A model generated the notes under the pieces. The model was not told where the DNA came from and did no database searches. It was given only the letters and a program-made list of their open reading frames with translations. A DNA stretch of 64,000 nt, taken from NCBI GenBank assembly GCA_003427395.1, contig BFEA01000001.1, positions 10,423,030-10,487,029 of the forward strand, given 5' to 3'. The translations under genes and the position numbers were made by a program. This DNA is from Chara braunii (Eukaryota; Plantae; Charophyceae). Below, one piece after another: positions 2,774 through 58,196 of this stretch. Numbering within the stretch: the stretch's first letter is position 1; every line of letters begins with the position of its first letter.

Positions 2774-3245
2774 GTGAGCTACATTTATGGTTATCAATCA
2801 TCGTCTTCCTCAAGGCCTGTCTTTCTCCTCTGCCCTTTCCGTATCCTCCTCCTCTCAGTGCTTCCTGGTACCTCATTGCCCACGATCATCCACCTTGACA
2901 TCCATCAGCAGAGGAAGGACAACGAAATAGGTTAAAAGTCTAATAAGTAAAGAGGGCAATAGAGAGAGGTAGGTAGGTAGGTTATCGGCTGTCTCTAGAG
3001 CAGGCACGAGTGAAAGCTACATTTGTGGCTATCAACCATCGTCCTCCTCAAGACCTGTCTTTCTCCTCTCCCGCCTTCCGCATCCTCCTCCTCTCATTTC
3101 TTCCTGCTACCTCGTTGCTCCCCCCCCCCCCGATTGTCCACCTTGACATCCGCAGAGGAAGAAGAGATAGGGCAACGAACGACATAGATTACAAATCTAA
3201 TACACTAAGTAAAGAGGGCGCCAGAGGTAGGTTCTCGGCGGTCAC
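2774..3245. repeat. Diverged ~235-bp tandem duplication just 3' of the NAT stop codon
   Basis: 2774-2996 (gctacatttatggttatcaatcatcgtc...taagtaaagagggc...ggtaggttatcggc) aligns with 3010-3245 (gctacatttgtggctatcaaccatcgtc...taagtaaagagggc...ggtaggttctcggc). Confidence 0.85.
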
Positions 3246-6082: not shown

Positions 6083-6314
6083 CCTCCTCCTTCCTCCCTC
6101 CTACCTCCTCCCTCCCCCCTCCACCCTCCTCCTCCTCCTCCTCCTCCTCCTCCTCCACCTTTCGCTTCTCTGTACTGTCTAGTCGCCTGCCTCCTCTTTC
6201 TTCGTCAGTCTGTCGCGAGGGCCCGCACGTCACCTCTAGCGTTATCCTCACCCCCACACATCAACTCCGCGCCCCGACGCTCCCCCAGATTTCTTACGCC
6301 CTCGTCCCACCCAC

Positions 6315-22886: not shown

Positions 22887-23245
22887 TGACGCCCTCCGCT
22901 TGCGACGTTGCTTCCACGATCGACACGAAAAACACACGTGGAGGAAGACAGCTCGTCCTCCTCATCAGACTCTGACTCTGAGTTCTGTGTCGGATGGCAG
23001 AGGTACGAGCATTCCCACAGCGATGCCCGCAACACCCCGTTTGTGCACCTGGCTCTCTCCCGGCCCCGGCCGCAGGAACGGCGCCCACCCCAACTATGAG
23101 CTAGAGGAACCACTTGCACTTCTACCCCTGAAACTTGACACAGGAGATTCCAGTTCTGACCTGGAACTCCACCCCCACTTTCCAAAAATCCTTGGCTCCA
23201 TGCCCACTAACACTCCGAAACAGGAAGTCGCGTTGGGCGTGAGGT

Positions 23246-23256
23246 TGGTATCGGAG
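23246..23256 (+). promoter_or_regulatory. Primer-binding site, tRNA-iMet type
   Basis: TGGTATCGGAG versus canonical TGGTATCAGAG, immediately after the LTR remnant. Confidence 0.8.
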
Positions 23257-23412
23257 ACAACACGTGTCAAGACAAGGGATTGACAAGTTGCTTGGCTCTC
23301 TAGTTCAACCGATCTGGCGACCCCAAAACGGGGGCGGTCCGCGCAAAGGAACGCGTCGGCACACGAACTTGTAGTGACAAGAAGCAGGTCTGCGGGTAGA
23401 TCGGCAGACAAC

Positions 23413-24489
23413 ATGAATGCTAATCAGGCAAACGCCAATCAGGCCCAAGCCAATCAAGCAAAGGGCGAGGCAGGGGGCGGCCTGGGGCCTGCGCCTCAGC
23501 CCGTGCCTCAGCCTGCACGCGCCCGCGCTCCTGCAGCCCCGCCCGATCTATATTTATTCGATCCAGCGCACCACCTGGCAGGAGCATGGCTTGCCACGCT
23601 CCAAGCGCAGCAGTACGATAATGATGAAGCTAGGATTAACATCCCAGCCCGACTAGGAGGCGACACCCATCACTGGTTCAGCACCTACGTATGGACTGAC
23701 CTTCCTACCTTCGAGAGGGACTTCCTACACCGATTTGATTACATACATCCAGAGCAAGCGTTCTTTATGATCAAAGACCGAGTGCAGAAGCCCCTCGAGT
23801 CTATTGTGGAATACTGTAGTCGGTTCTATCGACTGTTCCTAAAATCTCAGAGAGACGAAAAGGTAGGAAGAGAATTCTTCATAGATGGACTTTGAAGTAG
23901 AGCTATACGGGATAAGATATGAAAACAGTTCTCCCCTATCACCTTCACCCTGATGCAAGTCATGGACGCATGAGAAGAGATGGAGCGAAAGTTCGCTGCC
24001 AGCTTCCTCGAGGGAGAAGATCACGCTAAAGAAGGTGACTCTACGGAACTGACCCACGCAAGGATGGAATTAGCAGCCCTGCAACATAAGTTCGAAAATA
24101 TGGGCTTCGTGTCAGGCCTTGTCACCTACCTGGAACAGGTGGCAGCCCTACGACGCCCTCCCGGTCAGGGAGCAGGACCATCGACGCCCAAGGCGGCTGC
24201 ACAGACACCCACTCCGGCGGGGAGGATAGAGGAGTCGAACGCAGTACTAGACCTTACACGTACGCTGGTTAGCCTCATGCAAGAAAGCAAAAAAGAACAG
24301 CGCAAGTACAATGCCCGTATGGAGTCGCTGATGCGTTCCATGCGTCCCATTAATGTTCGCGCTGCCCCTTCTGCCACCCAAGCATCTGCTCCCTCAGCCG
24401 CGGGAGCTGGCGCAGGCACGACCCCTAGGACTGACACGTGTTACGCCTGCCATCAACCCGACCACATGGCCCGGGATTGCCCCCAGTGA
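23413..24489 (+). pseudogene. gag of element A
   Basis: Retrotrans_gag-like segment (WFS...W...FERDFLHRF...QKPLESIVEYCSRF...FIDGL*) and zinc knuckle CYACHQPDHMARDC, with internal stops. Confidence 0.88.
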
Positions 24490-24558
24490 CAAGTAAGAAT
24501 AGGGGCAGCCTCGGCAGCTGCAGCTCCCTTAGCTAACGGGCCTGGACGGGTAGGAAAC

Positions 24559-27500
24559 ATGGTAGAAGAAACGAACGTGGCAGCACCAAGCATAGGGGTA
24601 ATCGAGGAAGCCGCAAAGCTCATCCCACTAGATCAATTCCTCTCCTCGGGATATCCGGGGCTTGGGATGATAGGGGCAATCCAGTCCGCGGACGATGAGC
24701 GAGAGATTTCAGAATGGCGACCATCCTCGGGGGAAATGGAATCCGGCGGTCCTGAGTTCGTCACCGGGAAGATCGATGTTTTGGACATCGTCCGAGCCTT
24801 AGATCACCGCATTCTGCTTCTGATCGGCCATCTATTGTCCATATCAGAACAGGCCAATGATCGCATGCTCCGGCATTGCAAGGCCAATCGAAAATGATTC
24901 GCACTCGCCAAGCTGGCAACGGCCAAGGGGAAGGCTCCCATAAAGGAGACAAAGCCAGATACACCTGGACCCTCAGAGCCTGTACGCCTGGGACTTCTCC
25001 AGAAAAGCGACCATTTTCTGTGCATCAAAGCTATCCCGTGGAAGTCCGCGGAGTGTGACGTGGAGATCTGGGGAGTCCCATACAACGCGATCCTTGATTC
25101 CGGGGCAGCGGTGTTGGCAATATCCCCGCGAGTAGTGGAACGGACAAGAAGAAGGAAGAATCTGATCCCACTCAACGAAGGAGACCGTTTGATCTCCGTC
25201 GATGAGGAGAAGATCAAAGCGGTAGGAAAAATGACAAACGTCGCTTTTAAGTTGGGAAAAGTCCACGCCTTGGGAGACGTGGTGGTTCTTAATGTGATTC
25301 AGAACTCGTACGACGTACTCATCGGACTGCCTGCTTTAAACGCCCTCCAGGCCAATCTAGACTTTGAGCGACGGGAGGTGGTTATCAAGAACACCGGGGG
25401 TAAGCCGTACGCAGTCCCCATGCGCCTCACCCTCCGCACGACTACCAACCCGCCACGTAGATCTCACCCAGAGGTAGGCGGGCCGATTCGGACAGTCACC
25501 TGGGACGGACTCCTTGAGGACTCAGAGACTAGCAGCGAAGAACACACGGGATTCGGAAAGCGAGGACGAGATAGACCCGACGATTCAAGAGCTGACACGA
25601 AGGGTAATCCGTTACCCAGTCCGACAAAAAACGACGAAAACGTTCGTGTTGACTGAAGAAAATGTCCAACGAACTCGAGCTCTTATCATAAGAGAACCCC
25701 TGGTACAGGTGTCAAGTCTGCCCGACTCTTTGGAACCCCCTCGGACCCTGTACAAGGGCACTACTTCCTTGCTCCCCCGATACGTGGACAAGCGATCCTT
25801 CTGCGACGTCACGGAATCCCCTCCCCGATCGCTTCTTACCATAGACAAGGAGCTACGGTTGCTGCATCTGGGAGCGGAAATACAGGTTTTGGAACTCCCT
25901 GGGTGCCCCAAAGCCTCGTTGTTTGATATCGGGATAAGGATCGCTGAGAAATCGGTGGATCCCCGGGATATTGCGGACGAGATAACCCCCGAAGAACATG
26001 TGGTCATCCGAGAAGAGGAAGCCCAGATGGTAGCCACCGTGTTCTCGTGGCGGTCGGACAACTCTTTCATCTCTTCCCCACCGCCCCGGGACTCTAAGGC
26101 AGTACGCACCAAACATGTTACAGTCGATATACATGGACGACCTTACGAGTTACACGTGCCAGAATACGTGCCCGGCGGAACCCACCAACTTATTGCAGAG
26201 ATCTTAGCGGAATATCGGGGTGCTATCAGCATTGATGACGCAGACATCGGGTTATCTTTAATAATCCAGCACGAGATTCAGACCGGTACTCACCCGCCGA
26301 TTCATTGCAAAGCTTATCGATACTCATTGGCAGAACGAAAGACAGCACTCGAGCGAATCCGGGAATTCGAAGCTAATGGTTGGATAGAGCCCGCTACAGG
26401 TCCTTGGTCCTTTCCGGTAGTTTTGGTTCCGAAAAAGAACGGATCAATCCGCATTTGCATTGATTATCGGAAATTGAATGACATCATGATCAAGGATGTG
26501 TACCCCCTCCCTCAGATTGATGATCTGCTGGATGTGATTGGCTGTGCAAATTATTTTAGTAAATTTGATAATCAGCACGGGTTCCACCATATCCTTGTGA
26601 GGGCAGAGGATCAGTCGAAGACGGCGTTTGTCTTGTTTGAGGGCACATGGCAGTGGGTTCGATGCCCTATGGGTATATGCAATGCGCCGACGACTTTTCA
26701 GCGGGCAATGAATGTCACTTTCCCGAACTTCGTAAACAAGACCAGGTTAACTCAGGGCATGATCAATTTTTGCGTTATCGCATACATGGACGATATTTTG
26801 GTGTATTATGAATCATTCCATGGACACGCGCAGCATATTGAATGGACACTTGGCGCGCTGCGGGACGCCGGTTTCAAGATTGCGTTGGAGAAAAATGAAT
26901 TCTTCCTGTCCGAGATCTCGTTCCTGGGCTACGTGGTAACCCGAGGAGGCTTGAGACAAGATTCGAGGAAGGTCGAGGCTGTTCGAGAAGCACCCACGCC
27001 CACGTCATTGACGCAGGTTCGAGCCTTCCTGGGACTGGCCTCGTACCACCGACGGTTTATCAAGGGCTTTGCGACAATCGCTCGGCCCCTGACGAACTGA
27101 GGAAGGAACAGCCACTGAACTGGGACGCGGAGTGTGAGCAGGCCTTTTGCACTTTGAAGGAAGCCCTGGCCTCGGCCCCTATTTTAATCCGGCCCGATCC
27201 CGAGCGCCAGTTCCTACTCATTACTGATTGGCAGCCGGAGGCTATCTCCGCTATCCTAGCTCAGAAGGGGAAAGATGGGCGGGAGCACGTAGTCGAATAT
27301 GCTTCGAGGACGGTGCCGGATGAAAGGAAGAACGACTTGGCGCCACAAGGAGAATGCTACGATGTCGTCTGGGGAATCTAACACTTCCACCCGTATCTCT
27401 ACGGGCAGAAGTTCCTCCTCGTAACGGATCACGAGCCATTCTTGGCCCTGAAGAAGTTGACGAACTACACGGGAATGATTGGGCAATGGGCGGTGAGGCT

Positions 27501-29386
27501 GCAGGAGTATGACTTCGATATCGTCCACAGAAAAACGGAAAGGCACGGGAACGCCGATGGATTGACACGTCTGCACCGGCCAGGCAAGGTGCCATGCAAC
27601 GAAGAGATCACTCCGTGGAAGGATCCGGAGAAGCCCAAGGGACCCGGGTACGGCCAGGTGAAGGTTCTCCCTCGGCAGGCGAAGAAGTGACACGTGTCCT
27701 TATGGCGGCCCAGAGAGAAGAGAACGCCGAGGGCCCTCTCTCGCCTTCTTCCTCTTCTCTATTCTCCCTCCCCGATCGTTTTTGTTTTCTGTGTGAGTAT
27801 ATCTCGCGCATCCACTTCGTTTCGGTTAAACCGAAAAATGAAGGGTACATCGAGTGGGTAGAGTGTGCCACATGCGTAGTCAGGGCCCATGGATCATGGA
27901 TCCAATATAGGAATCCGTAGAAACGGTGGCTCTGCCATCTGTGCCGTACTGATAAGATTCCGACGGAGGCTCGATTCTTGGAAGCGACATCAGAAGGATT
28001 GGAAAAGATCTTATAGTATAGACGGGCAGAGGTGTGGACAGATGTCGCTTTGATAGCGACCGTCGTAGGGAACCGTCTTCGAGAATTCTCCAAGGACGAT
28101 CGGAGACGGGCCAATGAAAGGGCGCGGGGTTATAGGTGGAATGAGGGACGGTTAGAAAAACGAAAAACAGACGGGAGCGGAATATGGATGGCAGTTCCGC
28201 ACCCGTTTATGAGGTATGAATGGGTTAAAGAAGCCCACGAAGAGACAACAGCCCATTTCGCGGTCAGGATCACCGAGTCCGCCATCGACAAGAATGAATG
28301 GTATTGGTCCAACATTAGGGACGACGTTAAATATATTGTTAAAAATTATCCCGTCTGTGCGGCGACAAGGCACCGATTCAGCCACCTAGGTGGATAATGC
28401 CCACCGTAGTCCAACGACCATTTCAGAGGGTTAGCATGGACACGGCGGATATTATCGCCCCCCCTGGACCGAACAGTTGTGAATATTCAATTCTCTTGGT
28501 GTTTGTCGACCACTTCTCAAAGTGGATTGAGGCCTACCCATGTCGGACAAGACAGACGACGGAAATAGCGCGGTATGTCAACCGTTTCCTCGGGATGCAT
28601 TAGGACACCGAGGAAATCCTTACCGACAACGGAGCGGAATTCAAGGGAGAAGTCATGAGGAAGCTGGTCGTACACGGGGTGTCTATTCGTAATACGGCTC
28701 CCCATATGTCTCAATCGAACGGCCTCGTGGAAAATGCCAACCGGGTAATTAAAACGACACTTCGACGGAATATTGCAGCCAAGGACACGCGGCAGTGGCC
28801 TGATATCGTAGATCATGTCTTAGCTATACATCGAGGGACCCCGCATGAATCTACCGGACTTTCACCTTTCCAGCTACGTACGAACCTAAATGACGAAACG
28901 GCGCTGGACAAACATCCCACACGGGTGACGGCCAAGGACAAGGCCAAGCGCCATTTGGACCTCATGGAACAGGCCCTTCCGAGATTGGCCCGGAAACGAC
29001 AGCGTATGACTGAATTGGCCCAGGGACGCCAGGTCCGGAGTTATGAGGCCCGAAATGGGAATGCAGGTCCTCGGCCCCAGTATAAATTGGGGGACTTGGT
29101 GCAGGTGAGGAAATGTGCACGCCAGGGTAAGCTAGCGCCACGATTCTACGGATGCTTCAGAGTAATCGAGCTCGGTCCTAACGGCGTGAACACAGTGCGG
29201 CTTGCTCCTGAGGTGTCAGACAGCTGGTTGGCTAGGCCTATCATCCGCCACGTGTCCTACCTCCTCCATCTCTCGACTTCTTCCCCTCCTTCTCCAGCTG
29301 GGTCAATTTCGGAGTCTGAGTGGGATAGTGACGAGCCTCATTCTCTTTCTTCTACTCGTTCATCTTCTCCCTCCTCTTCGCCATGA
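24559..29386 (+). pseudogene. pol of element A: protease, RT, RNase H, PHD finger, integrase; disrupted
   Basis: PR AILDSGA. RT PVVLVPKKNG, CIDYRKLN, PMGICNAP, AYMDD. RH LITDW, VEYASR, VTDH, HGNADGLTR. IN H..H..C, SMD, TDNGAEF, NGLVE, FYGCFRV. Several stops and frameshifts. Confidence 0.95.
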
Positions 29387-29868
29387 GTTTCTCCACGGAG
29401 CAGGTACTCAGTGAACGCATCTTGGCGCCAGGTGGGCATATCTCGTCAATTCGGCAAGTGTATCATCCGCGCATCAGCCCGGACGCTCTCCGCTTCTCCC
29501 AGTTCTTCAGTACGGCGGGATTCCACGAGGCGACAAAATTTCGATTTGTGATCCCCAACAGCAGGTCGCACATGCTGGCCGAAGCCTCGGCTTACCGCAG
29601 GCTCTCAACGCTAGGGACTACTCACAATTCGGTAGTTGTCATCTTCAGCGGGGATCTTACTTCGCTCGACCCCGGAACGCATACGGCCATTCTTGACTCG
29701 TTGCGAGATTGGGGAGCGCAATTGTCGAGGGTGTGGAGTCAGATGCTCGCGCAACGGGGGGAGAACATCGTCAATACCGACCATATTGACATAAACGACA
29801 TTCGCCTCTCTCGGCACGCACTAGCGGTGCACATCCCCGAGCTTGTCCCCTTCCTGCGCCCCCAATGA
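29383..29868 (+). CDS. Extra ORF (161 aa, unknown function) after integrase
   Basis: Intact, globular-looking ORF whose ATG overlaps the pol stop (ATGA at 29383-29386). Confidence 0.55.
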   Translation: MSFSTEQVLSERILAPGGHISSIRQVYHPRISPDALRFSQFFSTAGFHEATKFRFVIPNSRSHMLAEASAYRRLSTLGTTHNSVVVIFSGDLTSLDPGTHTAILDSLRDWGAQLSRVWSQMLAQRGENIVNTDHIDINDIRLSRHALAVHIPELVPFLRPQ

Positions 29869-30075
29869 ACCTCTTCAGATTCTCTACTTTCAGCACAAGT
29901 GCTTGGGTAAAGGCTTTCTTCAATCTGAAGAAAGCCAACTGGCGCGTGGGTGTCCATATGAAAGGGACATCCTTTGGCAACAGGTTAGTCAGGGGAGCGG
30001 CCACAGTAGAGAAGTTTCTAATGAACTTCATATTATAAGAGGCCAGTCCCATGAAAGACTTGGATGTCCCTAACA
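29866..30075 (-). pseudogene. Inverted fragment of a different Gypsy pol (RT thumb/connection)
   Basis: FMGLASYNMKFIRNFSTVAAPLTNLLPKDVPFIWTPTRQLAFFRLKKAFTQALVL is homologous to, but clearly different from, element A's own FLGLASYHRRFIKGFATIARPLTN... Confidence 0.88.
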
Positions 30076-30187
30076 GTCGGCGGCTGAGGCCAGTCCCTAA
30101 CTGCAGCCACCTTGGAGTCATCTAGGGAGAGGCCATCTGCAGAAATCACATGTCCCAAATACAAAACAGAAGAAGCACCAAAGGAAG

Positions 30188-30796
30188 ATGCGCACCGTCA
30201 TGCAGAGACTTCTGGCACGGCGACGCGCAGGCGATCCCACTCCCCCTCCCCTTCCCCCCGTCCCTCAGTTCGAGCTCGTGGCAATGCAGGACATCGGGTT
30301 ACGTCCCCGTTCCCTATCCCGCCGTCCCCTTGATTACATCACATTCCGACCGATCGATACTCCGCGCTCCTTCCCCTCTAATCCTTTTCCTCCTTCGACC
30401 TTCCACCAATTTTACGCCACCCGCCTCGTCGCCATAGTATACCCGCACCCCGCCGCCCAATGTGTCTTTTCTTCCTTCTATCTCCATGTCCTTCTGTTCA
30501 ACGCTGCGTGGCGAGACCAGGATGTCATTGAAGTCTACTGCATCATCACCGGAACTATCCCCGTGTGTGCAGATCATGAGCAGTTCCGCGCGACGTTGTT
30601 TCGCACCTTCTCAACCCTCTATCCCGATTATCTTGCTTCCCTCCCCGAGAGCGGAAATCGTTTCCCCCGCATCCATCACATCATTAGGTACCAGGAGCTC
30701 CCTGAAACGGTGATGGGGATGACAAATTTCTTACCGCCTCTCCCGAATGATCCTCCCCCGCCTATCCCCGCCATCTTTCGACTCCCCCACCCTTGA
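30188..30796 (+). CDS. Second extra ORF (202 aa, unknown function) before the 3' LTR
   Basis: Intact ORF with Pro-rich ends and a beta-strand-like hydrophobic core. Confidence 0.5.
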   Translation: MRTVMQRLLARRRAGDPTPPPLPPVPQFELVAMQDIGLRPRSLSRRPLDYITFRPIDTPRSFPSNPFPPSTFHQFYATRLVAIVYPHPAAQCVFSSFYLHVLLFNAAWRDQDVIEVYCIITGTIPVCADHEQFRATLFRTFSTLYPDYLASLPESGNRFPRIHHIIRYQELPETVMGMTNFLPPLPNDPPPPIPAIFRLPHP

Positions 30797-30869: not shown

Positions 30870-31706
30870 TATTGGTGGAATTGTAAACCAAGCGCGGGGG
30901 GGGAACAACTTCGGCTATGACCTTTTTCTCTTTTCTTTTCTTTTCTTTTGTTTTCAAATAAAGCGTCTGTCTTTTCGGCGCGATAATCGCGTGGGTAAGT
31001 CTTTCGGAATTTTTGAATTTAGAACAAGCCCATGCGGGCTCTCGGAATTTTTTTTTGTAATTAGGACTTTAATTAGACTAGGAAATTGGGTGCGTCATAA
31101 TTTTTGCCCGTAACTGCACATCGCCTCTTGCTTGCGCGCACGCTTTGCTGCACAGGGACCAGCGCTCTGTTCCCGCCGCGCCTAAATTCTAATCTCAACT
31201 GTAATCTCTTCTTGTTCCTTCCCCGCTACGCAGGAGTAACTGTAATCTTCCCCGTTCTTGAAATTCCCTTCCCGCGTCACTGCATGCGCACTCTACATCC
31301 TATCTCATTGGCTGGATCGTTGCATGGTTGGATCAAAGCGTGGAGTGAGGCTACGTCCCCCACGCCGCGGCCCGGTCATGCACTCGTAGGCACTTCCTTT
31401 CTCCCTTCTTTCCTGTTCCTCTGGCAATCCCGAATATTGCGCGCTGATTAACAAGCTATAAATTATGCAAGTGCGATTGATTTTCTCTCTAAGCTACTTG
31501 GGAGTTAGCGCGGTCGAGAGGATCGGCTAACGTGCAGAAAGACAATCAGTAGAGAGTTGGGCGATATGACGAGCTGGTGCTGAGTGCGCGGTGTTGACAC
31601 ATGGCCGCGAGGGACTGTGGCACGTGGGCGAACCTGGTTTGCATGCTCAGGCTAAGCGGGGTGACGACTCTGTGAGGTCTTTGGGATGCGCGGCGACGGA
31701 CTGCCC

Positions 31707-31750
<44 letters not shown>

Positions 31751-31855
31751 NNNNNNNNNNNNNNNNNNNNNNNNNNNNNNNNNNNNNNNNNNNNNNNNNN
31801 NNNNNNNNNNNNNNNNNNNNNNNNNNNNNNNNNNNNNNNNNNNNNNNNNNNNNNN

Positions 31856-31923
<68 letters not shown>

Positions 31924-33528
31924 GAGGGATATGGTGGAACAGTGTCTTTTCCTCCCTCCCTTCTATATAAATTTTGATTCCAACGTTGGCCAATTTTGTT
32001 GCGGCAGAGAGCAAAAAAGACTAGAATAAGAATGACTCTCTCGCCCATTTGGTTCTCTCACTCTTTGACGTTTAGACTCTCAGCATGAGGCGCAATTTGG
32101 ACTCCCCGACTAGAGCTCATTGTCGGAGTTGGTTCCGGACGGCCAGCACCGATCCAAGGGATAGGCACTTTTTGGATTTCCTGTGTAAATCTTCTCGGAT
32201 CTCTTTGTTGGAATGCATGTATGTATCGCATTCTTTCTCGCAAATTGTCTTTGCTTTTCCATTTTGTTTTATTCAGTAGATTAGCATGGTTTTAACTTTG
32301 TCGCTTTTTCAGCATTCGACATCGCAGTGCATGTATCGATCTACGAGTGTGAGTTCTCTCAGATCTAGTCGGTGCGCTCCCTACGCGGGATTAGCCCAAT
32401 CACTTGCGTTCGACCTGTGTAAGAGATTACGGGAATTACTGGGAATGTATGTCTGCTCTTCGAATGTTTGATGGTCTTTTCCTTTGATGCATAAAAGTAT
32501 AACCAGGGAGGGGCTGTTCTGGGAACGGGGTTGCATGCATAATCGGACCAAGGTGCCAATAGATTGCTCCGCCATTAGGACGCGCAACTTAGGACTTAAC
32601 TAGTTGGCCAGTGCGTACGCGCGTGGAAGACGGCAATCCATCAACGGATTTGCCATCTACACGCACGCATGCAGGGGCTAGTTACGATCCCGCCACGTAG
32701 GAATGATGTGTGTGAGTGAGTCCCGTTGATCCGGATATGGCGATCAAAACTCCTTTTTGGATCACCGACCGCGAAACCCTGAGAGATCACGAGTACACGA
32801 CATATTGGGAAAGGGAACAGATCCGACGACAACAAGTCCGGCAGCAACGGATCAGACGGCAACAAAACTTGCGGAACCTTGATTACCCCTGCCGAACTGA
32901 GCACGGGCGACTGTGTAGGGGCAATTTCCAGTTGGCATTCAACCGGGACTCCCGAATTCCTGAGTACCCCGACAGTAGACACCAACAATACTTTATCACT
33001 CCAGGCTTCGTCGCTATCACGACTAATTTCCCTCCCCATTACATCGTCCTCCCGTATCACCGATTGCTAGTTACCCCCTGGGACTCCATATCCCGATTTT
33101 GGCCCCGGCCTCCGTGCCAGAGTGCCAGAGTGCCAGCAGCCCAATGAGTACGAACAGACGGAGGCCACGCATTTGACTCCTCCCCGGAGAGAACGATGAG
33201 AACCCAGCTCGTCCTCCTCATCAGACTCTGACTCTGAGTTCTGCATCGGACGGCAGAGGTACGAGCATTCCCACAGCGACATCCACAACACCCCGTTCGT
33301 GCACCCGACTCTTTCCCACCCCGGCCGCAGGAATGGCGCCTACCCCAACTCTGAGCTAGAGGAACCACTTGCACTTCTACCCCTGAAACTTAACACAGGA
33401 GATTCCAGTTCCGACCTGGAACTCCACCCCCACTTTCCAAAAATCCTTGGCACACCCCTTTTCGCACTTCCAGGCCCACTAACACTCCGAAACAGGAAGT
33501 CGCGTTGGGCGTGAGGTTGGGCGTCACA
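30870..33528 (+). repeat. 3' LTR of element A (~2.6 kb; left boundary approximate; contains (GA)n and a gap)
   Basis: The right end is defined by the match to the 5' remnant and the CA terminus. The left end is estimated from the motif CTAGGAAATTGGG (31078) shared with the solo LTR (36967). Confidence 0.7.
32737..33147 (+). CDS. LTR-embedded ORF of unknown function (homologue of 38457-38900)
   Basis: FITPGFVAITTNFPPHYIVLPYHRLLVTPWDSISRFWPRPPCQSAR aligns without gaps to the ORF in the solo LTR. Confidence 0.6.
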   Translation: MAIKTPFWITDRETLRDHEYTTYWEREQIRRQQVRQQRIRRQQNLRNLDYPCRTEHGRLCRGNFQLAFNRDSRIPEYPDSRHQQYFITPGFVAITTNFPPHYIVLPYHRLLVTPWDSISRFWPRPPCQSARVPAAQ

Positions 33529-34734
33529 TCCTCCTCACCTCTCGTTTTCGGTGACAAAAAATAAAAAAATAAAGGGAAAAACAATGCATGAACAAAAAAA
33601 GATCATTGGAGTCGGGAAGAAGATTGACCAGCCGCAAGAAGGGGGCGGTGCTGGGTCAATCAATCCCTCGACCAAGGAAACCAAACGATCAGCCATTGTA
33701 TTCTCCTCGGATACGTTGGATTCTGAGCCGAAGATAGACGGTGCAACTCATGATTCTCTTGTTGTTGAATACTTGGAGAATTAACAGGAAACTTCCTATA
33801 AATGGAAGGAACCCTCAATGGACGACCTGGACTTTGTGGTCCTAGGTTTATTTCGGGAGGGAGCCATCCAGTTTGAACCTCAAGCGGATTCAAAGAAGGC
33901 AATAATGTATACTATGAGCAAGAAGGCTCGTGCTAATGATAGCTTGTTGATCCCCACAGTTGAAGAGCAGTATTTAGGGGATCCTAGCAGATAAGACCAC
34001 CTCCAAAAAAAGGAGCCATTGGAATAGATCAGCTAAGAAGTCTTTGATTTATGCAAATCCTATGGCCACCCTCAGCAAGGCAGATAAACGGAAGGGGGAC
34101 ATACTAAAATGTTTAGTTCCCCTTATCTGCTCCACTCCCGAAAACGGATCATGGTGCTAGCTAAGCAATCAAATGACAAGACATTGTCGATTCCTTCTAT
34201 TGGGGTGGTTGCAACACCCCCTGAAGAATAAATGATCAAAATAGTTAATGAACAAATTCTCCACTGTTACTACTTGGGCTCGTGCACTATGCTTTTGAAG
34301 CCTCGTTTGGGTGGACACATTGCTTCCTTGCCTGACGACAGAAAGATCATACTGCATATAGTTTCCATGGTCGTTCATGTTATTTCTGCCTCCTTCGCAG
34401 CCTTGTGTACTGCTAGGGTGTATTGGTGACCCTTACAAGACCTGGTTTTGCAGACGAGTGATTCTCTCTCGACGATCCGATTAGCCCCCGATCTCTCTAC
34501 TACAACGATTGCTGATTGATTTACCTGGGTAGACACTTCTACCTTTTTGTTTTATAACTTGTTTCACACTCAGGTCTCTCGAGGGGGTCTTCCAAAGATG
34601 GCACGGACCATCCTAATGATTCTGCCGAATAAAGTTTGTTTGGTGAGCTAAAATATCAAGGGGCTAGGAGACACTTCAAATGGGCAAAAACGTTCAAGAC
34701 TACTATCCTGGATTCATTATGCAAAAGCGCACAT

Positions 34735-35980
34735 TGTGTGCATACAAGAAGTGAAGTTTAATTCAAAAAAAGAAAACAAATCCTCATGTGGTGAGAATGA
34801 TCGAGGTTGACTCTGTGTAGTGTGTGGACTTTTGGTTGACTCTTTAATGTGATTGCAGATATGTTCTGTGGTTCGGACTTTGGATTTGATTGCCTGCAAT
34901 CATATACATATATATGGCTGTGAGGAGTCCCATTGTGATTGTGAGAAGTGATCGTCACGTACTTATTCCCATTTTATTATTGTATGTTTTTTAAAGATTT
35001 CTTAGTCGGACGTTGTTCCTGGGCCTGGATTCGAGGGCCTTGTCCACGACATCCCAGGTCCTAGACTCTGCATGGAAGGGATCACCCCCCGTGGAGAGCC
35101 TATTTGCCTTACCCACTGGGACACTCAGCCTAAAGGCCGAAGGTGCCTCGGAAGTCGCACGATTGTTCGTTCAACCGTGCAATATCGTGAAGGGGTAGAC
35201 CCTCACGATACTTCGAGTTTGACACTTGGGTGTCATAAGCGGTACTCGAACCCACGAGCGGTACTCAAACCCACGAGGGACCGCTTGATTATGGGCTCTA
35301 CATAGTACGCCATCATTGCGACTGCTTGCATATTCATACATTGCTAGTCGATATGAGAAGATCCTGCGTCCACGCGGTTTTATACTAAGTCTCGCGCGCG
35401 TCGCCTATCTGATTTTCGCATCGGAAAATTATGGGATGGCTACTGAAGGGACTAGGATTGTATGCGTTGTTCTGTTTGTGTCGTTTTGTGCGTGCGTGTG
35501 TATGTGTTTTAAATTTTTATGTTCTTAGAGTGGTGTACGGGTGACGTGTGGGAAGCATCCTAGTCGACCAACGACAGGTCGCGCTTAGGACCTCAGCCCC
35601 CCAAGGCGTTGGTTCTCGTGCAGGTCCGATAGAGGTGTAAAACCGCGCGTACCTCCTATGCTACAGCGAACAAGAAATGGCCTCGGCTGGTCCACCTCTG
35701 CGATTGCAGCTGATTAGCTTTCGTAATGTGGATTGGTAGCTCGACGAGGATACGCCCACCGAAGGGAGGTGACAGCTCCCATAAGGTGGAGGTAAGTCGT
35801 GTCTTGCGTAGGCCCTATCCTATCGTAGGGGCTTGCGAGGGGTATGGCTGGCGCACTCGACCGGAGCGGCTTGCGGAAACTCCATGTACATATCGTGATG
35901 AGGAATAAACCAACTCCTGCGTGACGTGGCCAGGAGGGTCCCGCCCCGTTCTGTGCGGTGTTGAACCGATACGCGCGACG
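34735..35980 (+). repeat. Third, more diverged copy of the 3' part of the family-B LTR
   Basis: 34790-34960 matches 56870-57040 and 35295-35980 matches 57460-58126. Confidence 0.85.
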
Positions 35981-36412
35981 CCGGGCCTTAAAGTCCCGCC
36001 AACCTCCTACTTCTATCCCGGTCCTTAGTCCTACGTTCCTCCTCCCTCAATTTTTTTAACCTATTCGTGCCAACGTTCAGGCAGCCTTTCAAAAAATCAG
36101 TGATAACCAAAGTCCCTGGGCCATCCCAATCCCTAATAAGTGTCATCTGATTTCGGGTAGGTACAGGGTCCCAGTTACCCTAAGGTCGGTCTACAGATCA
36201 TCACCAGGTCCCCGATTAAACCTCATGTCGCTCCATAAGTATTCCACCATCATAAAAACGTTGTTTCTCCCCAAGGTTACGACTCGCCATTCTACATCAC
36301 TCCCTCGAAACTCGTAGCTCGCAGAAAGTGATACTTGCCACCCATTGCCATGCTCCAAGCGCAAGCGAGGGCATGTAAGTTGCCGCGGCATTCGGACGCG
36401 TCTTGCCACCAT
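35981..36412 (-). pseudogene. Unknown-family paralogue P4 (N-terminal part, cut by the LTR copy at 35980)
   Basis: MVARR...VSLSASYEFRGSDVEWRVVTLGRNNVFMMVEYLW...DL*TDLRVTGTLYLPE aligns without gaps to P3. Confidence 0.7.
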
Positions 36413-36469
36413 TGTCGATTGGTGAGCCTCTGCATAGTAAAAAAATAAATGAATATAGCCTATCTTCCT

Positions 36470-36758
36470 TTACACAATTAAGTCCCTACTCACTACCTTC
36501 CTTTTCTTCGGTTCTTTGTTCTTCTCACCTTGGCTCCTACCATTATCATTCTCTCGTTCATCCCTCTTGGCTATCCTTTCCTCTGGCAACTTGAACAACC
36601 GATATATGTCGTCTATGGAGGTCAGTCCGCGAATCACTTCTCGCCTAATGACACCCCACATAATTTCGTCACTGATCAGCGGGACTCTCGGCCTTGTTGT
36701 CACAGCTGCCTGCAGTATGCGCAACACTTCATATCCCTGCTCTTCCTCAAAGGCCCGG
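36470..36758 (-). pseudogene. C-terminal part of paralogue P3 (joins 58197-58756)
   Basis: Excising 36764-58196 plus 5 bp gives in-frame ...GAMTYREY-RAFEEEQGYEVLRILQAA...EPKKRKVVSRDLIV*. Confidence 0.75.
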
Positions 36759-37897
36759 TAGTATGTGACATGCCAGCTTCCGGACTTGCGCTATTTTTCG
36801 CCCCCCCCACCCTTCTCTCTTTGTCGAATTTGGTTAACAACCCGATGAGGCCTCTTTTTGTATTTTCAATGAATGTAATATACGGGACCTTCGAATCGAT
36901 TTTTGGAATTTCATCTTTTGCGAATTCGGGAATTACATGGGAATTACGCGCGCCTTAGCGAGCACGCTAGGAAATTGGGTTGACGGTTAGGAATTCTGGA
37001 ATGGACGAAATATGACGTGTCCTTTCTTGCGCATGAATGTTCTCAATTTCGTCTTGAAAAGCTCTGAGAATTTTTGCAGGAATCTGAATAAGTATAGGAC
37101 TTTCTCCCACGCCGCTCGCTCTACCGCAAGGATATGGTACTTTTCAATTTGAATTAGCTGTAACTGTTTCGGTGCCCTTTTTGCGTTCGTATCAGCGCCA
37201 TGCATGCGATTCTCCCCTCCCCGTTTCACTCGCTGCCCTCGACACTCTTTTCTTCACACTCATGCTCCTTCTCTCTCTGTAACCGTTTTTCATCTCCCTT
37301 TTACTTTGCGCACCTTTTCTCCCCTTCTTGATTGTCTGAATCTTGGTTCCGTTTCACACTATTCTTCGTGCTCTTCCTCTTCCCGCTCTGATCCTCGTGC
37401 CGAAATACCCTGTCGACCCCCTTTCACTCCCTCTAGCCAAGGAGACACGCAGTAAAAGAAGGAAATTCCTGATACACGACGATTCTGATTGGCTACAGCT
37501 GGGATCCAAAGGATCGACATGACTTTCGTCAGACAATCCCTGAGCCTTTCCCTACTCCTCCCTGTCTCAGTCCTATGCCCGTCTATCTTCTTTTCCGCAG
37601 CTATAAATTTCACAAGCGCTTCCGAAAATCTCTCTCTCGACTCATCAGCCCGCTTCCGGAAAGCTGTGGCTAGGTGGCATGAAGGAAGGTGCGAGTCGAA
37701 AAGTCCCGACGAGCTCGCTGTAGTCTCGACACTCGACATGCTGGATCGCCCGACGGACTGTGGGATCCGAGCAGGGTCGTGCAGGGGCTAAGTCGGTGGG
37801 GTGACAATCGCTATGGTGGATTTGGAACGTGATGGCTGGGATCGTCAGTGCAAGTGAGACGTTCGAGTCGGAAGTGAGTGAGTGCACGACCTGGGGC

Positions 37898-37935
37898 CTG
37901 TCTCTTATACACATCTAGATGTGTATAAGAGACAG
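37898..37935. other. Nextera mate-pair junction adapter (assembly artefact) with a flanking 129-bp false duplication
   Basis: CTGTCTCTTATACACATCT+AGATGTGTATAAGAGACAG (two Tn5 mosaic ends). 37769-37897 is repeated exactly at 37936-38064. Confidence 0.98.
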
Positions 37936-38456
37936 GAGCAGGGTCGTGCAGGGGCTAAGTCGGTGGGGTGACAATCGCTATGGTGGATTTGGAACGTGAT
38001 GGCTGGGATCGTCAGTGCAAGTGAGACGTTCGAGTCGGAAGTGAGTGAGTGCACGACCTGGGGCTATGGTGAAATTTTATGGCAGAAGTGATTTCTTCCC
38101 TTTCTTTCCCAAAATTTGTATCTTTGAGTGTGAGTTCTGATCGCTCGGCTTTTAAGCGGGGATATTCCTGGACCAACTCGCCTGACATTCTGTGATTGCT
38201 TTCTACTCGTCCCTCCTTCCTGGCCTGCGTCCATACTCTCTCCCTCTCTCCCCTCCGGTCATGTTATGTCATAATGGATGAATTATGGTAACTTGCTTCT
38301 CTCACTCTGGTATGTGCATGCGGTGAGTCGTGATTAGAGATTTTGTTATAGCACGATTGCAAGGACGATTGGCTGATCGACTGAATGATCTGGTTGCCTT
38401 GAGTGACAAACGAATGATGTATGATTAAAATCTGTTTTGAGCTTGCCCTTGCTGCC

Positions 38457-38900
38457 ATGTGGACTGACGACCCTGATCCGACCAGACGCCAACTTCCCGT
38501 ACCCCCGCCACGCCCCTTCCCGTACAACGAGGAAAGGGTACGTGTATGCAAGTGGGACGTACGAGAAGCCATCACCAAGATTGGAGGGCGTTACTACTTT
38601 CCTCCCGAAACTCAGTGCTCGGGATTCGTCGGTGCGGGTTTTGTTATCATTGATACGCATTTCCCGCCCTATTCGTTGTTGTTGTCATTTAACGAATTGA
38701 TCGTTGTTCCGTGGATGGCAGTAGGGCCTCATTGGCCTAACACTCTGTGCAGCGATTGTCGTCACTTCGAGCATTACCAGGTCAAGGGTTGTCACTATCG
38801 TACACGTGGCGAGGACGAACACAAAGAGAAGGCTACTCGATTGAGGCCCTCCACGTCAGACTCCGAGTTGTGTAGTGAGCGTCGACGAGACCTCATCTGA
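38457..38900 (+). CDS. LTR-embedded ORF of unknown function (homologue of 32737-33147)
   Basis: FVGAGFVIIDTHFPPYSLLLSFNELIVVPWMAVGPHWPNTLCSDCR, followed by STSDSELC (compare SDSDSEFC in the other LTR). Confidence 0.6.
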   Translation: MWTDDPDPTRRQLPVPPPRPFPYNEERVRVCKWDVREAITKIGGRYYFPPETQCSGFVGAGFVIIDTHFPPYSLLLSFNELIVVPWMAVGPHWPNTLCSDCRHFEHYQVKGCHYRTRGEDEHKEKATRLRPSTSDSELCSERRRDLI

Positions 38901-41900
38901 AAACGGGATACCACGTGTGTACCTGCCCCCTTTCACGCGAAACGAAGAGCGACGGCTCGCTGGGAAGTTCAACGATACTTTTTAGATTGAATTTACCATA
39001 GTTGTGAGTCCCCGCACACGCCTTTATCTCCCTTAAAACCTGCGCAGCGATACATTCGAACCAACACGGGGGATTTCCAGTTATGTCAGTGTCCCCGCAC
39101 TCAATTTTCCAAAAATCTTTGGCACACCCCATCTTTGCTGCCTTTCCCCATTGTCGGTGCGAATACTCTTACAAGGGTATCCACCCTGGCTTTTGCAAGT
39201 GACATAAAATAAGTTTGGTTTAAAGTCTAAATATTTCGCGCGAGGCGCGACTGCGTCTGTGACTTACGTTGGCTGAAGGTTGACTAGAATAGAGAGTGTC
39301 TGGGCGCACGGGCTTGAGGCGCCCATTATTTTATTTATTGATGACTGAAGAACCGGCGTGATCGCCGACCAGATTTTTATTTATTTATGATTTGAATTAT
39401 GATTAAAAATATTTTTGCCTTTTGATTGGTGCGCTTGCGCGTGACTTGTGCGACGTGCGGAAAACGGCGTCGACAACAATGTGATTTTGAAGACATTTCG
39501 GTAGATCTACGCGTCGCGCAGTATTCTCTTATTTAGGTGTCCGTCAGCCTTGGGCCTAACACTATTGGTTACAGCGTCTGACTTTCATCTGAGAGATTCA
39601 GGGATCGAGATCGAGCAGCGACGACGCGGGATATTAGAGTAGCGCGAAGGGGCCGAGGGGTTGAGGGCCCGACGGGGCTATTCCCCTTGGTTTTGCCGTT
39701 AGCGGAGTCGCAGCGGCGCCAACGGTTCCTTTTACAGTCATCGCTGACCATTAAAATTTTAAATGTGTTATTATTTATCGTCATTCTTAATTATTTTATG
39801 TTTTAGTGTTCTCTGAATCAAGACGTGGCGCCGGGTTTGAGGGCCGTCACGGCGGCCGAAGACCTTGAGCGTGCACTTCCCTTAGTTGACCAATGGGGCT
39901 TTGTTGGGGGACCGTAGCGATGTCGCGGCAAGTTGAAGACCATGGTGGACCCATCACTACTTCGGTCCTCAAAGTTCTCATTTGAATATTTGCTACTATC
40001 ATTAAGATCTGCATCAGGACCCCCCCCTCCGACTGGAGCCATGCCTCAGGCCTGCAGTAGGCCCGGAAACTTGATTTTGTGTGTGTGGGCGGCCGCTGGT
40101 GGGCAGTGGTGGCCAAAGGCAGTGGCGCAGTCCGCCTGACCGGAGCAGGCCAGAGATAGACCAAGGGGAGGCTGTAGTGGGATGGCAGCGAAGCCAGCTG
40201 GCCACACTGCTCGTCGGGCAGAGTATAGAGGCGAAAGACTCATCGACCGTCTGATAATCGGCCATTTTCGGGCTATCGCTTACGGAAAAGGTGACCAAAC
40301 TGTGTTGGGCATTGCGGGGCCGCCGTGGTCGGATGCTGCATCGGTGGCAGCGGGGCAGAGCAAGGCAGCAGAGCGATGGGGCTAAGGCAAGGAACGTAGC
40401 GCAAGCAGAGGGAAACGAACCCGGGCTGGAAAATGCGCAAGGTGCATGCGAGAGCCACAGGCTATGGCAGAAGGAGAAGGGAGTGGAAAACATGAAACCC
40501 GCCCGATCCTTGATGAAAACGGGTGGGGAAAGAGTCGAGGCTAAGTTTTCTAGGCAGGGCGAATTAGATTATGCAGTTAGTTTATGGGTTAGAGGGTTGT
40601 GTAGAGTGGTTAGTGAGAAAAGCACCGTGTGAAGGTATGGCAAAGATAGAGGGAAAGTGAAGAAGAAGGAGGTGGATGAATACATATCTCGCCCATTTCC
40701 GGACGAAATCGGCTGAGGGAGGACTCAAACCGGGGGTTTTGGGGCGTGGCGGCCCCGATTCTGAAGTCATAATTAGTAAAAAGTTAGCAGAAGAAGATTT
40801 AGTAGAAAAAAGTGCTGCGTGAAAGTGTCGGGAGAGGTAGATATGACAGAGAGTGGGGAGTTTAGCCCATCCGATCCTTGACAGAATCGGACGAGGGGAG
40901 CCGCGTTTTGGGTGATCTGGAGTAAGATGGATGCGATGAAGATCTTAGTTCTGTTAATACGTTAGTAGGAAGGTGGATAAGAAGGGGCTGCATGGACGGG
41001 GGGGGGATAGCAGAAAGTCCAGGTATCTAATTGTGTTCAGGCGGTAGGTTCATTCAATTTTGCTCACTGTATCGATGGACGTAGCCGCTGCTTATCCCTC
41101 TACGCATACGATTCGAAGGCGGTATATCATTTTACATTCTAGCGGGAGATCCATTTATGACTTGAAGATAGTGGGGCAGTTGATGCCACACGCATTGGTC
41201 GGAGTCCCGGTACGACTCGTACGGGTCTCGATCCCGGTGAAGTTTTATGTAGGCTACCATCCTCGCTTTTGTTAGTGCTCTTGGTCTTCGCTCTGTTGCC
41301 GCATGATAACAACGGTGATCCCCATAGCAGTCGAGCTGACAAAGGAATAACGAGTAGGAGAGTGAAAGGATAAACGAGAAGAGAATGGGGAGATGGGCAA
41401 AAGGAGAGTCAGGCAGAGGCAGGGGAAAGGTTGAAACTAAAGACTCACCTGCTCACTGATACACTGCCCGAACTGAGGAGATTGCAGGCCTAGCTGCTGG
41501 CCAGTGGGCCGCCAAATGCATTAGCCGAAGTGACGAGGAGGGTCAACCACGGGGTGAAAAAACCTTGCCTTGCAAACACGCGTTGCCCAGTGAGCCACTG
41601 ACAGTGGAGTAAGGTCCGCCGTGAAGATTTGCAGATTGACTGGTGTGCTGCCGTTTATACCAGGCAGAGTAGTGTGAGTCCGACCACGGGCTGAATACTT
41701 GTTAGAGCTTGGTAAAGGCTACACAATCAGCACATGCGCACACTCCACCTGTTGAGTGACCAGCTAAACTGCGGTGACTGTTGTCGTTATGGCATGAGAG
41801 GGGACCGAGCTTCGTGGTGCTGACCCGAGTCTGAAGCCATAGCTAGTCGGACTGCGCTGCTGTTACACTGTGGTGCCGTAGAAAGAAGACTGTCTTGAGC

Positions 41901-42564
41901 TGTAACCTGTGCATTTCGGGTCACGAAGTTATGAAATGGTTGAGTCCTTGAAGGAGGCAGAGTCGTCGTTGCGAAGTGGGAGAGTCGTCAGGGAGTCAAC
42001 GGTTGAATGATTTGACTTCAGTCGACCAGGCTGGTAAGCACTTCCGCCATCATCGCGGGGTCCTCAAGCGTGTCAAGGTATCAAGGACTTCTCCCGCGAG
42101 TCTAAGAGCACCCTCCTTGGATCTGAGAGACTGAATCATTCTTCCTCTGCCTTTCTTACTCTAAGTCTAGTATATTGGTTACGAGAGGAAGGCGGCAGGC
42201 GGGATTGCAACCTGTAGGACCGCATCAAGACTTTGTGGGGAGTCCACCCACCGATTGCGGGAACTCTGCCGGAACCTAGGCGAGGTTCTAGAGGCAGGGA
42301 ACCATCAGGTAAATCATCTCTGTCTGTATGACCCACCATGCCGATGTCTGCCTATCTCCCTGTTGTTTGACTGATGTATGTACGTGATTGCCCCTATGAT
42401 TTTACTTTCTTCCAGTACTTAATCAGACTAAATGGAAGGAGTGTATGAAAGTGAAGCATAAGTTTCATCTTTATTTCTGTCTGAAAACAGATTAAGGTAT
42501 GAAATGAGGGAAGATGGGAGGAATGCAGACTGCATGCGTTTGACCGAGTCAACCAAGGACTGGG

Positions 42565-43168
42565 CATTGTTTTTAAGCTGAATGGCTCAGGGCTATGTTT
42601 ATTTGGCTGTTTCTGAAGGGTCAGGCATTGTTTCTAAGCTCAATGACATGGTTGTTGTGTTTTTTTCTGAGGGTTTGCCTGGCTGAAGGGTTTAATCACT
42701 TGTTTCATTCTGAGGGAGGATTTTTTGTCTAAGGCTAAGCATTGTTTCTAAGCTGAATGGTTTAGCCTGAAACCACGCATATAAGTATAAACTGAGTGTA
42801 AAAGAAAATACTTTACTTATATTTCCATGTGAACTTGCAGTTGGGCATTGTTTCCAAGCCGAATGGTCCACACTAAGCCATATCACTAAGTAGAGAAGGA
42901 AAACTCCAGAGTATAATTGGAAGTAGTCTGGGCAAGCTGAACATTGTTTCCAAGCCGAATGGTTCAGTCCCTGCCCATATTTGCATTTTCTTTTGAGAAT
43001 AAAGTCAGAAAGTTATTAATATTTGGATATTAAACAGTTCAGGGCGGCTAGGCATTGTTTCCAAGCCGAATGGTCTAGTCAAATGCCCAAAGGAGAGAGA
43101 AGTGGTAGTGTAACCTGTTCGTGTATATCTTAAAGGCTCACTAGACATTGTTTCTAAGTTGAATGGTC
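42565..43168 (+). repeat. Seven interspaced 22-bp motifs CATTGTTTCYAAGCYGAATGGT
   Basis: Copies start at 42565, 42626, 42740, 42846, 42942, 43053 and 43146. The spacers are dissimilar. Confidence 0.9.
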
Positions 43169-43469
43169 TAGCATTGTGCCATATGTAAGTTGGGTATAAG
43201 GGTTGAATCATCAGAGGGTTTCATGAACTATCTTATATAAAGTGACTTCGGGCTGGTGAGAGTACTTATCTTTGTGGTTTGGCCTTGCATGTGACTGAGT
43301 GAGATTACTACTTGGTCCGAGTTTCAGTTTGATAGGTAGCTGTTTTAGACGCTCGCCACGTGCTAGAGCCACAAAAGTTAGTTTCAATTCCTGCATTTTC
43401 TAGGTTAAGTTTATTTTTACTTAGGTCGATTTCTGAATTTTCTGGGATCATTTATTATACTTGGTCTTG

Positions 43470-43792
43470 TATAAATTTTGGTAAGGCACTTTCTCTACGG
43501 GAAGTGCTGCCGAAATTTCTACAAAACCAACGAGTTAGTCAGATTTTATCTTTTTCAGGGTCCAATTTTTAAGACTTTTTGGCTTAGTAAAAATTTGAAA
43601 AACCTCCTTTTCTAAAGGGAGTGCTGCCCAAATTTTTACTAGTTCAGGGAGTTCGACAAAATTTGGCTTTCCAAAATTATAGTTGATTTTTTTTTTCATA
43701 TTTGAGTTATTATAAATTTTGAGAAGGTATTTTTCCTACGGAAAGCGCTGCCGAAATTTTCTTAATTTATAGGAGTTAGGTTATATTTTGAC
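43470..43792 (+). repeat. Three diverged ~120-bp tandem units with core GTGCTGCCGAAATTT
   Basis: Cores near 43504, 43621 and 43746; the same units occur in the 3' LTR at ~56270-56590. Confidence 0.75.
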
Positions 43793-44439
43793 AGGTGGCA
43801 ATCCTAAAAATCCACTCTGTATAGAGGAGATTCTGTCAGGGTCTACCTTCTTTTGGCGCGTCGCCTATCCGATTTCCGCATCGGAGAGTTATAGGAAGAC
43901 TACTAAGGAACTAGGAGTGTGGTCGCGTTGTATGTTTTGTGTCGTTTCGTGTATATGTACGTGTGCGTGTTTTTTATGTTTTGTAGAGTGGTGTGCTCGT
44001 GGAGTGTGGGATGCGTCCTAGTCGCCTGACGACGAGTCGCGCTTGGGACCTCGACCCCCTAAGATGTCGGATCGCGTGCGGGTCCGATAGAGGCGTATTA
44101 CTGCGCGTACCCCCTATGCTACAACGAACGAGAAACACCCTCGACTGGTCCACCTCTGCGATTGCAGCTGATTAACTTTCGTACTGTGGACTGGTAGCTC
44201 GGTGGGGATACGCCCACCGAAGGGAGGTGACAACTCCCGTAAGGTGGAGGTAAGCCGTACCTCACGTAGGCCCTATCCTATCGTAGGGGCTCGCGAGAGG
44301 TATGGCGGCGCACTCGGTCAGAGCGGCTTGTGGAAACTCCATATGTATTTGCGACGAGGATTAAAACCAACTCCTGCGTGACGTGGCCGGGATGGTCCCG
44401 CGCTGCCTTGTGTGGTGCCGGACCGATGCGTTCGACAGG

Positions 44440-44458
44440 TGGCGCCGTTGCCGGGGAT
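44440..44458 (+). promoter_or_regulatory. Primer-binding site, tRNA-Asp (Athila-type)
   Basis: TGGCGCCGTTGCCGGGGAT, 2 nt after the LTR end. Confidence 0.93.
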
Positions 44459-58000: not shown

Positions 58001-58126
58001 ACTCGGCCAGAGCGGCTTGCGGAAGATCCATATGCATTTGCGACGAGGATTAAAACCAACTCCTGTGTGACGCGGCCGTGGAGGTCCCTCACTGCCTTGT
58101 GCGGTGCCGGACGGATGGGCTTGACA
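52087..58126 (+). repeat. 3' LTR of element B (6040 bp)
   Basis: TGTCGGTGC...TTGACA, colinear with the 5' LTR, with the same seven-motif array at 55364-55970. Confidence 0.93.
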
Positions 58127-58196
58127 CCTGGCCCCCTTTCGCAAACCAAAACACTCCGACCGGAAGGCAGTGCAGGGGGTGAGGTTGAACGTCACA
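58127..58196 (+). mobile_element. Last 70 bp of the family-A solo LTR
   Basis: AACACTCCGA..GGAAG..GGGGTGAGGTTGAACGTCACA matches the end of the A LTR (AACACTCCGA..GGAAG..GGGCGTGAGGTTGGGCGTCACA). Confidence 0.85.

Follow-up and report, generated by a model that had tools for sequence, protein, structure and literature searches.

A small, strongly constrained gene probably carried within the long terminal repeats of a Ty3/gypsy retrotransposon clade

We analyzed a 64,000-nucleotide stretch of the Chara braunii genome (assembly GCA_003427395.1, contig BFEA01000001.1, forward-strand positions 10,423,030 to 10,487,029). This whole stretch, referred to here as the window, is part of a eukaryotic draft assembly rich in transposable elements and includes 5 runs of N; coordinates given without a contig name are counted from its first letter. 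Comparison of two small open reading frames (ORF1 and ORF2) with related sequences shows that this small ORF is genuine protein-coding sequence under strong purifying selection across at least 3 diverged lineages. We consider it probable that ORF1 and ORF2 are degenerate copies of a real gene of a Ty3/gypsy retrotransposon clade, most likely located wholly inside a long terminal repeat (LTR) of ∼0.9 to 1.0 kb. The two ORFs and their cores, the latter supported by alignments and by the ratio of nonsynonymous to synonymous divergence (dN/dS), are as follows.

32716 to 33147, plus strand: ORF1, 143 codons from a GTG, with the first ATG at 32737; probable degenerate copy of the LTR gene
32884 to 33129, plus strand: conserved 82-codon core of ORF1
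38421 to 38900, plus strand: ORF2, with an upstream ATG at 38421; the ATG common to its relatives is at 38457, giving 147 codons
38517 to 38762, plus strand: conserved 82-codon core of ORF2

A first-pass annotation made from the sequence alone had paired the frames at 32737 to 33147 and 38457 to 38900, both of which are present on the plus strand, and had reported that they align without gaps. The ungapped alignment was recovered with 23 of 77 residues identical (BLASTP, E 5e-14), far beyond chance. A six-frame tblastn comparison of 31900 to 34500 with the whole window linked 32899 to 33129 to 38532 to 38762 in the ORF frame only (E 2e-8). The sole blastn match between the DNA of the two ORF regions was a 25-nt motif downstream of the ORFs (33434 to 33458, equal to 39106 to 39130), and sensitive blastn of the regions upstream of both copies returned microsatellite matches only. 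The earlier observation that shared residues are often encoded differently also held, with different codons at 16 of the 23 identical residues and the same codon at 7. Identity by codon position was 0.42/0.56/0.33.

A profile of both cores, searched against 1.84 billion representative proteins with a cutoff of E up to 0.001, found only 3 matches: P0001 (173 amino acids), P0003 (164 amino acids), and P0002. P0004 (175 amino acids) came from a further, word-indexed search that used a profile of seven rows. P0002 is a 1,077-amino-acid gene model that combines a Myb/SANT-like domain, the domain of the LTR gene, and a DCP1 decapping domain, and its Myb part shares 40% identity with the Myb-like frame on the minus strand of the window (21536 to 22054). 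With a Myb domain of transposon type and an unrelated host domain as its flanking parts, P0002 is probably a chimeric prediction that spans transposon debris upstream of a host gene. Metagenome contigs were more productive, and we kept 4 loci (L001 to L004) of 285 pattern matches.

L001, 1270 to 1788: copy L001a, which encodes P0001
L001, 3037 to 2602, minus strand: copy L001b, the second copy on this contig
L002, 69 to 560: copy that encodes P0003
L003, 399 to 833: ORF, with its core at 480 to 752
L004, 2 to 259: core

Two further loci on viral contigs (L005 and L006) matched the search pattern only and are spurious, because they are full of stops; in prokaryote genomes, 0 of 83 pattern matches were confirmed. 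The related sequences form at least 3 diverged lineages: ORF1; ORF2 with P0001, P0002, and P0004; and P0003 with L003, L004, and L001b.

We compared 7 DNA copies in 21 pairs, namely L001a, L001b, L002, L003, L004, and the ORF1 and ORF2 copies of the window (w1 and w2). The 82-codon core is open in all 7, and the proportion of nonsynonymous differences (pN) was below that of synonymous differences (pS) in every pair, with bootstrap upper bounds of pN/pS between 0.25 and 0.82 (Nei-Gojobori method). These results bear out the purifying selection that had been proposed from the two window copies. The suggested dN/dS check likewise gave values of 0.08 to 0.29 in the 9 pairs with unsaturated dS (e.g., L002-L003, 0.08; L001b-L004, 0.11; w2-L001a, 0.12; and L003-L004, 0.19), dS being saturated in the other 12. 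Pairs at middle distance had codon-position identities of 0.85/0.84/0.53. In a frame control on 8 pairs, the ORF frame alone was stop-free, and the other five held 0 to 8 stops each. The antisense frame that shares its wobble positions gave an equally low ratio but contained 2 to 7 stops per sequence, and the ratios of the remaining four frames were 0.6 to 3.6.

As a control, we used a conserved noncoding block (37578 to 37898) that matches L001 at 347 to 673 with 68% identity. Its mismatches are spread evenly over the three phases (35/36/35), and this absence of three-base periodicity indicates that the method does not see coding sequence everywhere. The block lies 560 to 870 nt upstream of ORF2, the sequence between block and ORF is unalignable, and the block may itself be a cis-acting element.

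Uninterrupted full-length forms of the gene are L001a (173 amino acids), L002 (164 amino acids), and P0004 (175 amino acids, known as a protein only). Both window ORFs are degenerate compared with these forms, in the manner of decaying transposon copies, and the constraint is read from the divergence between lineages. ORF1 ends at 33147, and the remnant of an acidic tail resumes from about 33206 in another frame.

33206 to 33300, plus strand: remnant of the acidic Ser-Asp tail of copy 1, seen in translation at +1 relative to ORF1

Within this remnant, DNA similarity links about 33209 to 33232 to the ORF2 tail at about 38846 to 38869. ORF2 has an in-frame stop at 38898 to 38900 where its relatives read on, and P0001 aligns across this stop, over all of its 173 residues, to 38457 to 38969 with 62% identity. 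Among the metagenome copies, L003 has an in-frame stop directly before the core, L001b changes frame upstream of the core, and the L004 contig begins within the gene.

The aligned proteins have a variable N terminus followed by the 82-residue core, which is rich in Cys, Trp, and Pro and includes 14 invariant columns over nine aligned rows (R, C, F, F, V, F-P-P, L, L, P-W, and W-P). Tails differ between groups: the ORF2 group has a conserved acidic patch of Ser and Asp together with an end rich in Arg/Lys, and the P0003 group has an Arg/Pro-rich tail. Isoelectric points range from 8.2 to 9.6. There is no membrane segment in P0001, P0003, or P0004, in which the maximum 19-residue Kyte-Doolittle mean is 1.12 to 1.32. 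Searches of Pfam found 0 families for ORF1, ORF2, P0001, P0003, and P0004; a profile search of the PDB found 0 matches at E up to 10, and an Atlas search gave no usable match. AlphaFold2 models from 5-row and 9-row alignments were unusable (mean predicted local distance difference test [pLDDT] scores of 44.2 and 47.3). We infer that the product is soluble, works as an accessory protein for the element, and is probably nuclear or acts on nucleic acids. Three oligo-dT RNA runs (6 to 13% of each) mapped to 32300 to 39400 gave mean depths of 0 to 0.4 on either ORF and are uninformative on expression.

The position of the gene was assessed relative to the LTRs and to a Ty3/gypsy gag-pol element upstream in the window, for which domains were annotated by a Pfam search over 105 long frames.

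22939 to 23245, plus strand: 5' LTR of the gag-pol element, limited to the final ∼310 bp of the LTR unit, without the ORF-bearing part
23246 to 23257, plus strand: TGG-initiated 12-mer resembling a primer-binding site, directly 3' of the LTR end
23284 to 29865, plus strand: Ty3/gypsy gag-pol, with gag, zinc knuckle, protease, reverse transcriptase (RT), RNase H, and integrase by Pfam, and several frame breaks
23284 to 24486, plus strand: gag with zinc knuckle (Pfam)
25478 to 27097, plus strand: RT (Pfam)
reaching to about 29383 to 29865, plus strand: integrase (Pfam)
32465 to 33517, plus strand: LTR copy 1, a 3' or solo LTR, with a firm 3' end and 5' candidates at 32465, 32515, and 32601
33434 to 33458, plus strand: conserved LTR-end motif, hyperabundant in the reads of the genome, with wider conserved extents at 33434 to 33479 and 39104 to 39135
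38901 to 39150, plus strand: part of LTR copy 2 after ORF2, with the tail remnant to 38969, the motif at 39106 to 39130, and a terminal CA at 39150

The segment downstream of the ORFs ends at a true LTR 3' end. The stretch from 33205 to 33520 is 88.6% identical to 22949 to 23248, and the TGG-initiated 12-mer adjoins this common segment at all three LTR-to-gag junctions (23246 to 23257 in the window, 1047 to 1058 in L003, and 571 to 582 in L004). The 12-mer is one or two letters off what we take to be the plant initiator-tRNA primer site. In both L003 and L004, gag comes next, with 59% identity over 192 amino acids to the window gag. LTR copy 1 gives way to single-copy DNA at 33518, as indicated by a contig spanning 33500 to 34835 at a depth of 10.7, contig depths being rough and usable as a weak hint of copy number only. 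The alignment of the w2 and L001a LTRs ends at the same aligned CA. We also considered 22949 to 23248 as a coding N-terminal extension of gag, with which it is in frame apart from one stop between them, and rejected this reading because the 12-mer follows in three copies and because of the single-copy DNA at 33518. Given the level of divergence, the gap, and the high-copy insert between them, the LTR segments of the window need not belong to one insertion.

We judge it likely that the gene lies within the LTR, mainly from the relatives. The order of features in L003 is as follows: unrelated sequence (1 to 174), ORF (399 to 833), motif (963 to 987), LTR end (1046), primer site (1047 to 1058), and gag (from 1105). 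In L004, ORF, motif, primer site, and gag follow one another likewise. Since the primer site is downstream of the ORF on both contigs, the ORF sits in a 5' LTR. L003 can be aligned with L001b from ∼175 onward and not before, i.e., from ∼222 nt upstream of the ORF start, and positions 1 to 174 of L003 had no match among the other sequences at hand. This similarity edge and the unmatched sequence before it place the LTR start ∼222 nt upstream of the ATG, with the gene wholly inside. The earlier proposal that the ORF is inside the LTR is thus sustained in the relatives; in the window taken alone, it is a matter of homology. There, a 13-mer at 32458 to 32470 matches the L001b boundary with one mismatch and suggests an LTR start at 32465 (TG), a purine run at 32505 to 32514 followed by TG suggests 32515, and a weaker match suggests 32601. 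Summed contig depth climbs from 225 to 363 to 618 across 32256 to 32699, with the increase at about 32400 to 32600, and does not rise at 33197, which is weak evidence.

The distance from the ORF to the LTR-end motif is fixed in 5 copies (w1, w2, L001a, L003, and L004), the motif being found at L001 1923 to 1947, L003 963 to 987, and L004 487 to 511 and thus kept in families that have diverged. Its summed contig depth is 329,027 at 33457, compared with about 10 for single-copy sequence (about 30,000 times), and it is probably common to very many LTR families. Could it be an R/U5 signal?

Several observations weigh against a functional gene contained in the LTR. Outside the core, interruptions or truncations affect both window copies and, in total, 5 of the 7 DNA copies, and the protein has no recognized family or fold. 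The w1-type LTR lacks the usual terminal CA, the 5' edge in the window is only bracketed between 32465 and 32601, and L003 and L004 are 95% identical and possibly one observation. Two further points would suit a gene that is real but internal to the element: the only 5' LTR in the window, which begins with TG at about 22939, lacks the ORF part and any upstream ORF, and a purine-rich run followed by TG at 33186 to 33198 is what a short LTR of ∼320 bp would need. The ORF would then be a sense additional ORF (aORF) at the internal 3' end, overlapping a short (∼320 bp) 3' LTR, and L003 and L004 would be complex or tandem elements that share one LTR, with gag after a 3' LTR. Precedent is available, in that LTR-sharing complex elements are called "not uncommon" in the abstract of PMC1950507 and, in the cited part of PMC7264820, no kind of aORF is commoner than the one found between pol and the 3' LTR. 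Even so, we regard an internal gene as unlikely, although less so than the other alternatives. Both L003 and L004 would have to be tandem structures, neither keeps the purine run at the equivalent place, and the similarity of L003 and L001b is lost ∼222 nt upstream of the ORF, where a shared internal region would continue. The depth profile without a rise at 33197 points weakly in the same direction.

It is improbable that the ORF is a captured host-gene fragment, or a host exon beside LTR debris, whose conservation reflects the host gene. P0002 does join the domain to DCP1 and Myb/SANT-like domains, but it looks chimeric, and a host gene fits poorly with only 3 matches in the protein search, with the constant spacing between ORF and LTR-end motif across 5 copies, and with a summed contig depth over the ORFs about 20 to 600 times that of single-copy sequence. 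More improbable still, and to our minds nearly negligible, is that no protein is made at all and that the similarity is due to chance or to some cis-acting element, DNA or RNA, conserved in the LTR. Such a reading would account for the negligible RNA cover on both ORFs, the missing domain assignment, and the low-confidence structure models. It does not account for divergence specific to third positions, the absence of stops in the ORF frame specifically in 7 of 7 copies, or the low dN/dS (0.08 to 0.29), and the truly noncoding block nearby has no three-base periodicity.

If the gene is an LTR gene, as we favor, there would be two copies of it in an intact element, and one would remain in a solo LTR. 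The full-length product of 164 to 175 amino acids would be translated from element RNA that includes the LTR, as the 5'-proximal cistron if transcription starts upstream or, alternatively, from that part of the genomic RNA which contains the 3' LTR. The protein might, as one instance, regulate or protect expression of the element. Selection would act on replicating master copies, and most resident copies, both window copies included, would decay. A bolder version, which we think rather unlikely and give slightly less chance than an internal gene, is that the LTR is a self-contained mini-gene with its own promoter, an ORF of ∼170 codons, and its own terminator. Any LTR, even a solo one, could then express a nuclear nucleic acid-binding accessory protein acting in trans across the family, e.g., switching on element transcription or shielding it against host silencing, and the hundreds of LTR copies in the genome would make up a scattered multigene family that repeat masking conceals.

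Other features of the window were annotated with Pfam.

3245 to 6100, minus strand: xanthine/uracil permease gene
10734 to 12998: long interspersed nuclear element (LINE)
16504 to 17130: Harbinger-type transposase
21221 to 22054, minus strand: Myb-like gene

Within the gag-pol element, summed contig depth reaches ∼23,000 over a 150-bp piece of the integrase region (29000 to 29147), compared with 120 to 1,300 in its neighbors, and this piece is presumably common to many gypsy families. Between integrase and LTR, an open frame of 231 codons (30101 to 30793, plus strand) belongs to no known family and may be another extra ORF of this element. A minus-strand ORF (29774 to 30121) that looked by eye like an RT/RNase H linker was rejected, as it had no Pfam match and none to the RT of the element itself. 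High-copy sequence at 31072 to 32255 (summed depth up to ∼15,800), around an assembly gap (31751 to 31855) and GA microsatellites, separates pol from LTR copy 1 and is likely a nested insertion or a misjoin. Upstream of ORF2, a transposase mosaic end is joined to its own reverse complement at 37898 to 37935, which we take to be a Nextera mate-pair junction adapter, and is flanked by an exact 129-bp duplicate (37769 to 37897, equal to 37936 to 38064). RNA reads accumulate over 37769 to 38064, with loose ends at 37916/37917, and the structure is most likely an assembly artifact. A different repeat begins at 39152, after LTR copy 2. This 5.3-kb repeat, with copies at 39152 to 44449 and 52087 to 58138 that are about 91% identical, starts with TG two bases past the end of LTR copy 2 and includes tandem units of 117 to 124 bp at 43451 to 43759. 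Its last ∼600 to 700 bp recur at 35278 to 35987, and its long frames have no Pfam domain.

Plant Ty3/gypsy elements are known to carry aORFs, including the env-like genes of Athila and Bagy2, the antisense ORFs of Grande, RIRE2, and Retand, and ORF1 of Ogre; those covered in the cited part of the review are internal to the element and for the most part located between pol and the 3' LTR (PMC7264820). The gene described here resembles them in being lineage specific, element borne, multicopy, conserved as an element protein, and without outside homologs. Unlike the aORFs in that part of the review, it lies upstream of the primer site and gag in L003 and L004. There it is neither internal nor downstream of pol, as in the aORF-3S and aORF-3R classes, and could belong to them only if these loci are tandem elements. 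Its protein is not env-like, because it has no membrane segment.

The first-pass annotation had drawn a parallel to retroviral nef and to sag, the superantigen ORF in the U3 region of mouse mammary tumor virus (MMTV); this parallel stands for position and fails for sequence relation and for a membrane segment, of which we found neither. As in MMTV sag, the gene would be within the LTR and hence at both ends of the element and in single LTRs. Sag, however, is a membrane glycoprotein of an animal retrovirus, whereas the LTR gene belongs to a Ty3/gypsy retrotransposon, shares no sequence relation with sag, and encodes no hydrophobic segment. The nef genes of human and simian immunodeficiency viruses and foamy virus bel/tas begin internally, only overlap the U3 region of the 3' LTR, and are expressed from spliced RNAs. 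They are similar to the LTR gene as accessory genes that share sequence with the LTR, and the basic tail would fit a Tas-like nuclear regulator, but they show no sequence similarity to it. In a narrow literature phrase search, the wording "LTR ORF" turned up almost exclusively for MMTV, and neither this wording nor the description of an LTR-internal gene turned up for LTR retrotransposons, which is not proof of absence.

LTRs are usually seen as regions of control without coding function, and masking removes them ahead of gene finding. An LTR gene under selection would be invisible to standard annotation, doubled in every element, able to outlive recombination to a solo LTR, and potentially expressed separately from gag-pol. 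It would be a small, strongly constrained orphan protein whose role in the conflict between element and host is open to direct test, and it would give the accessory genes of retroelements other than the complex retroviruses a position not catalogued before.

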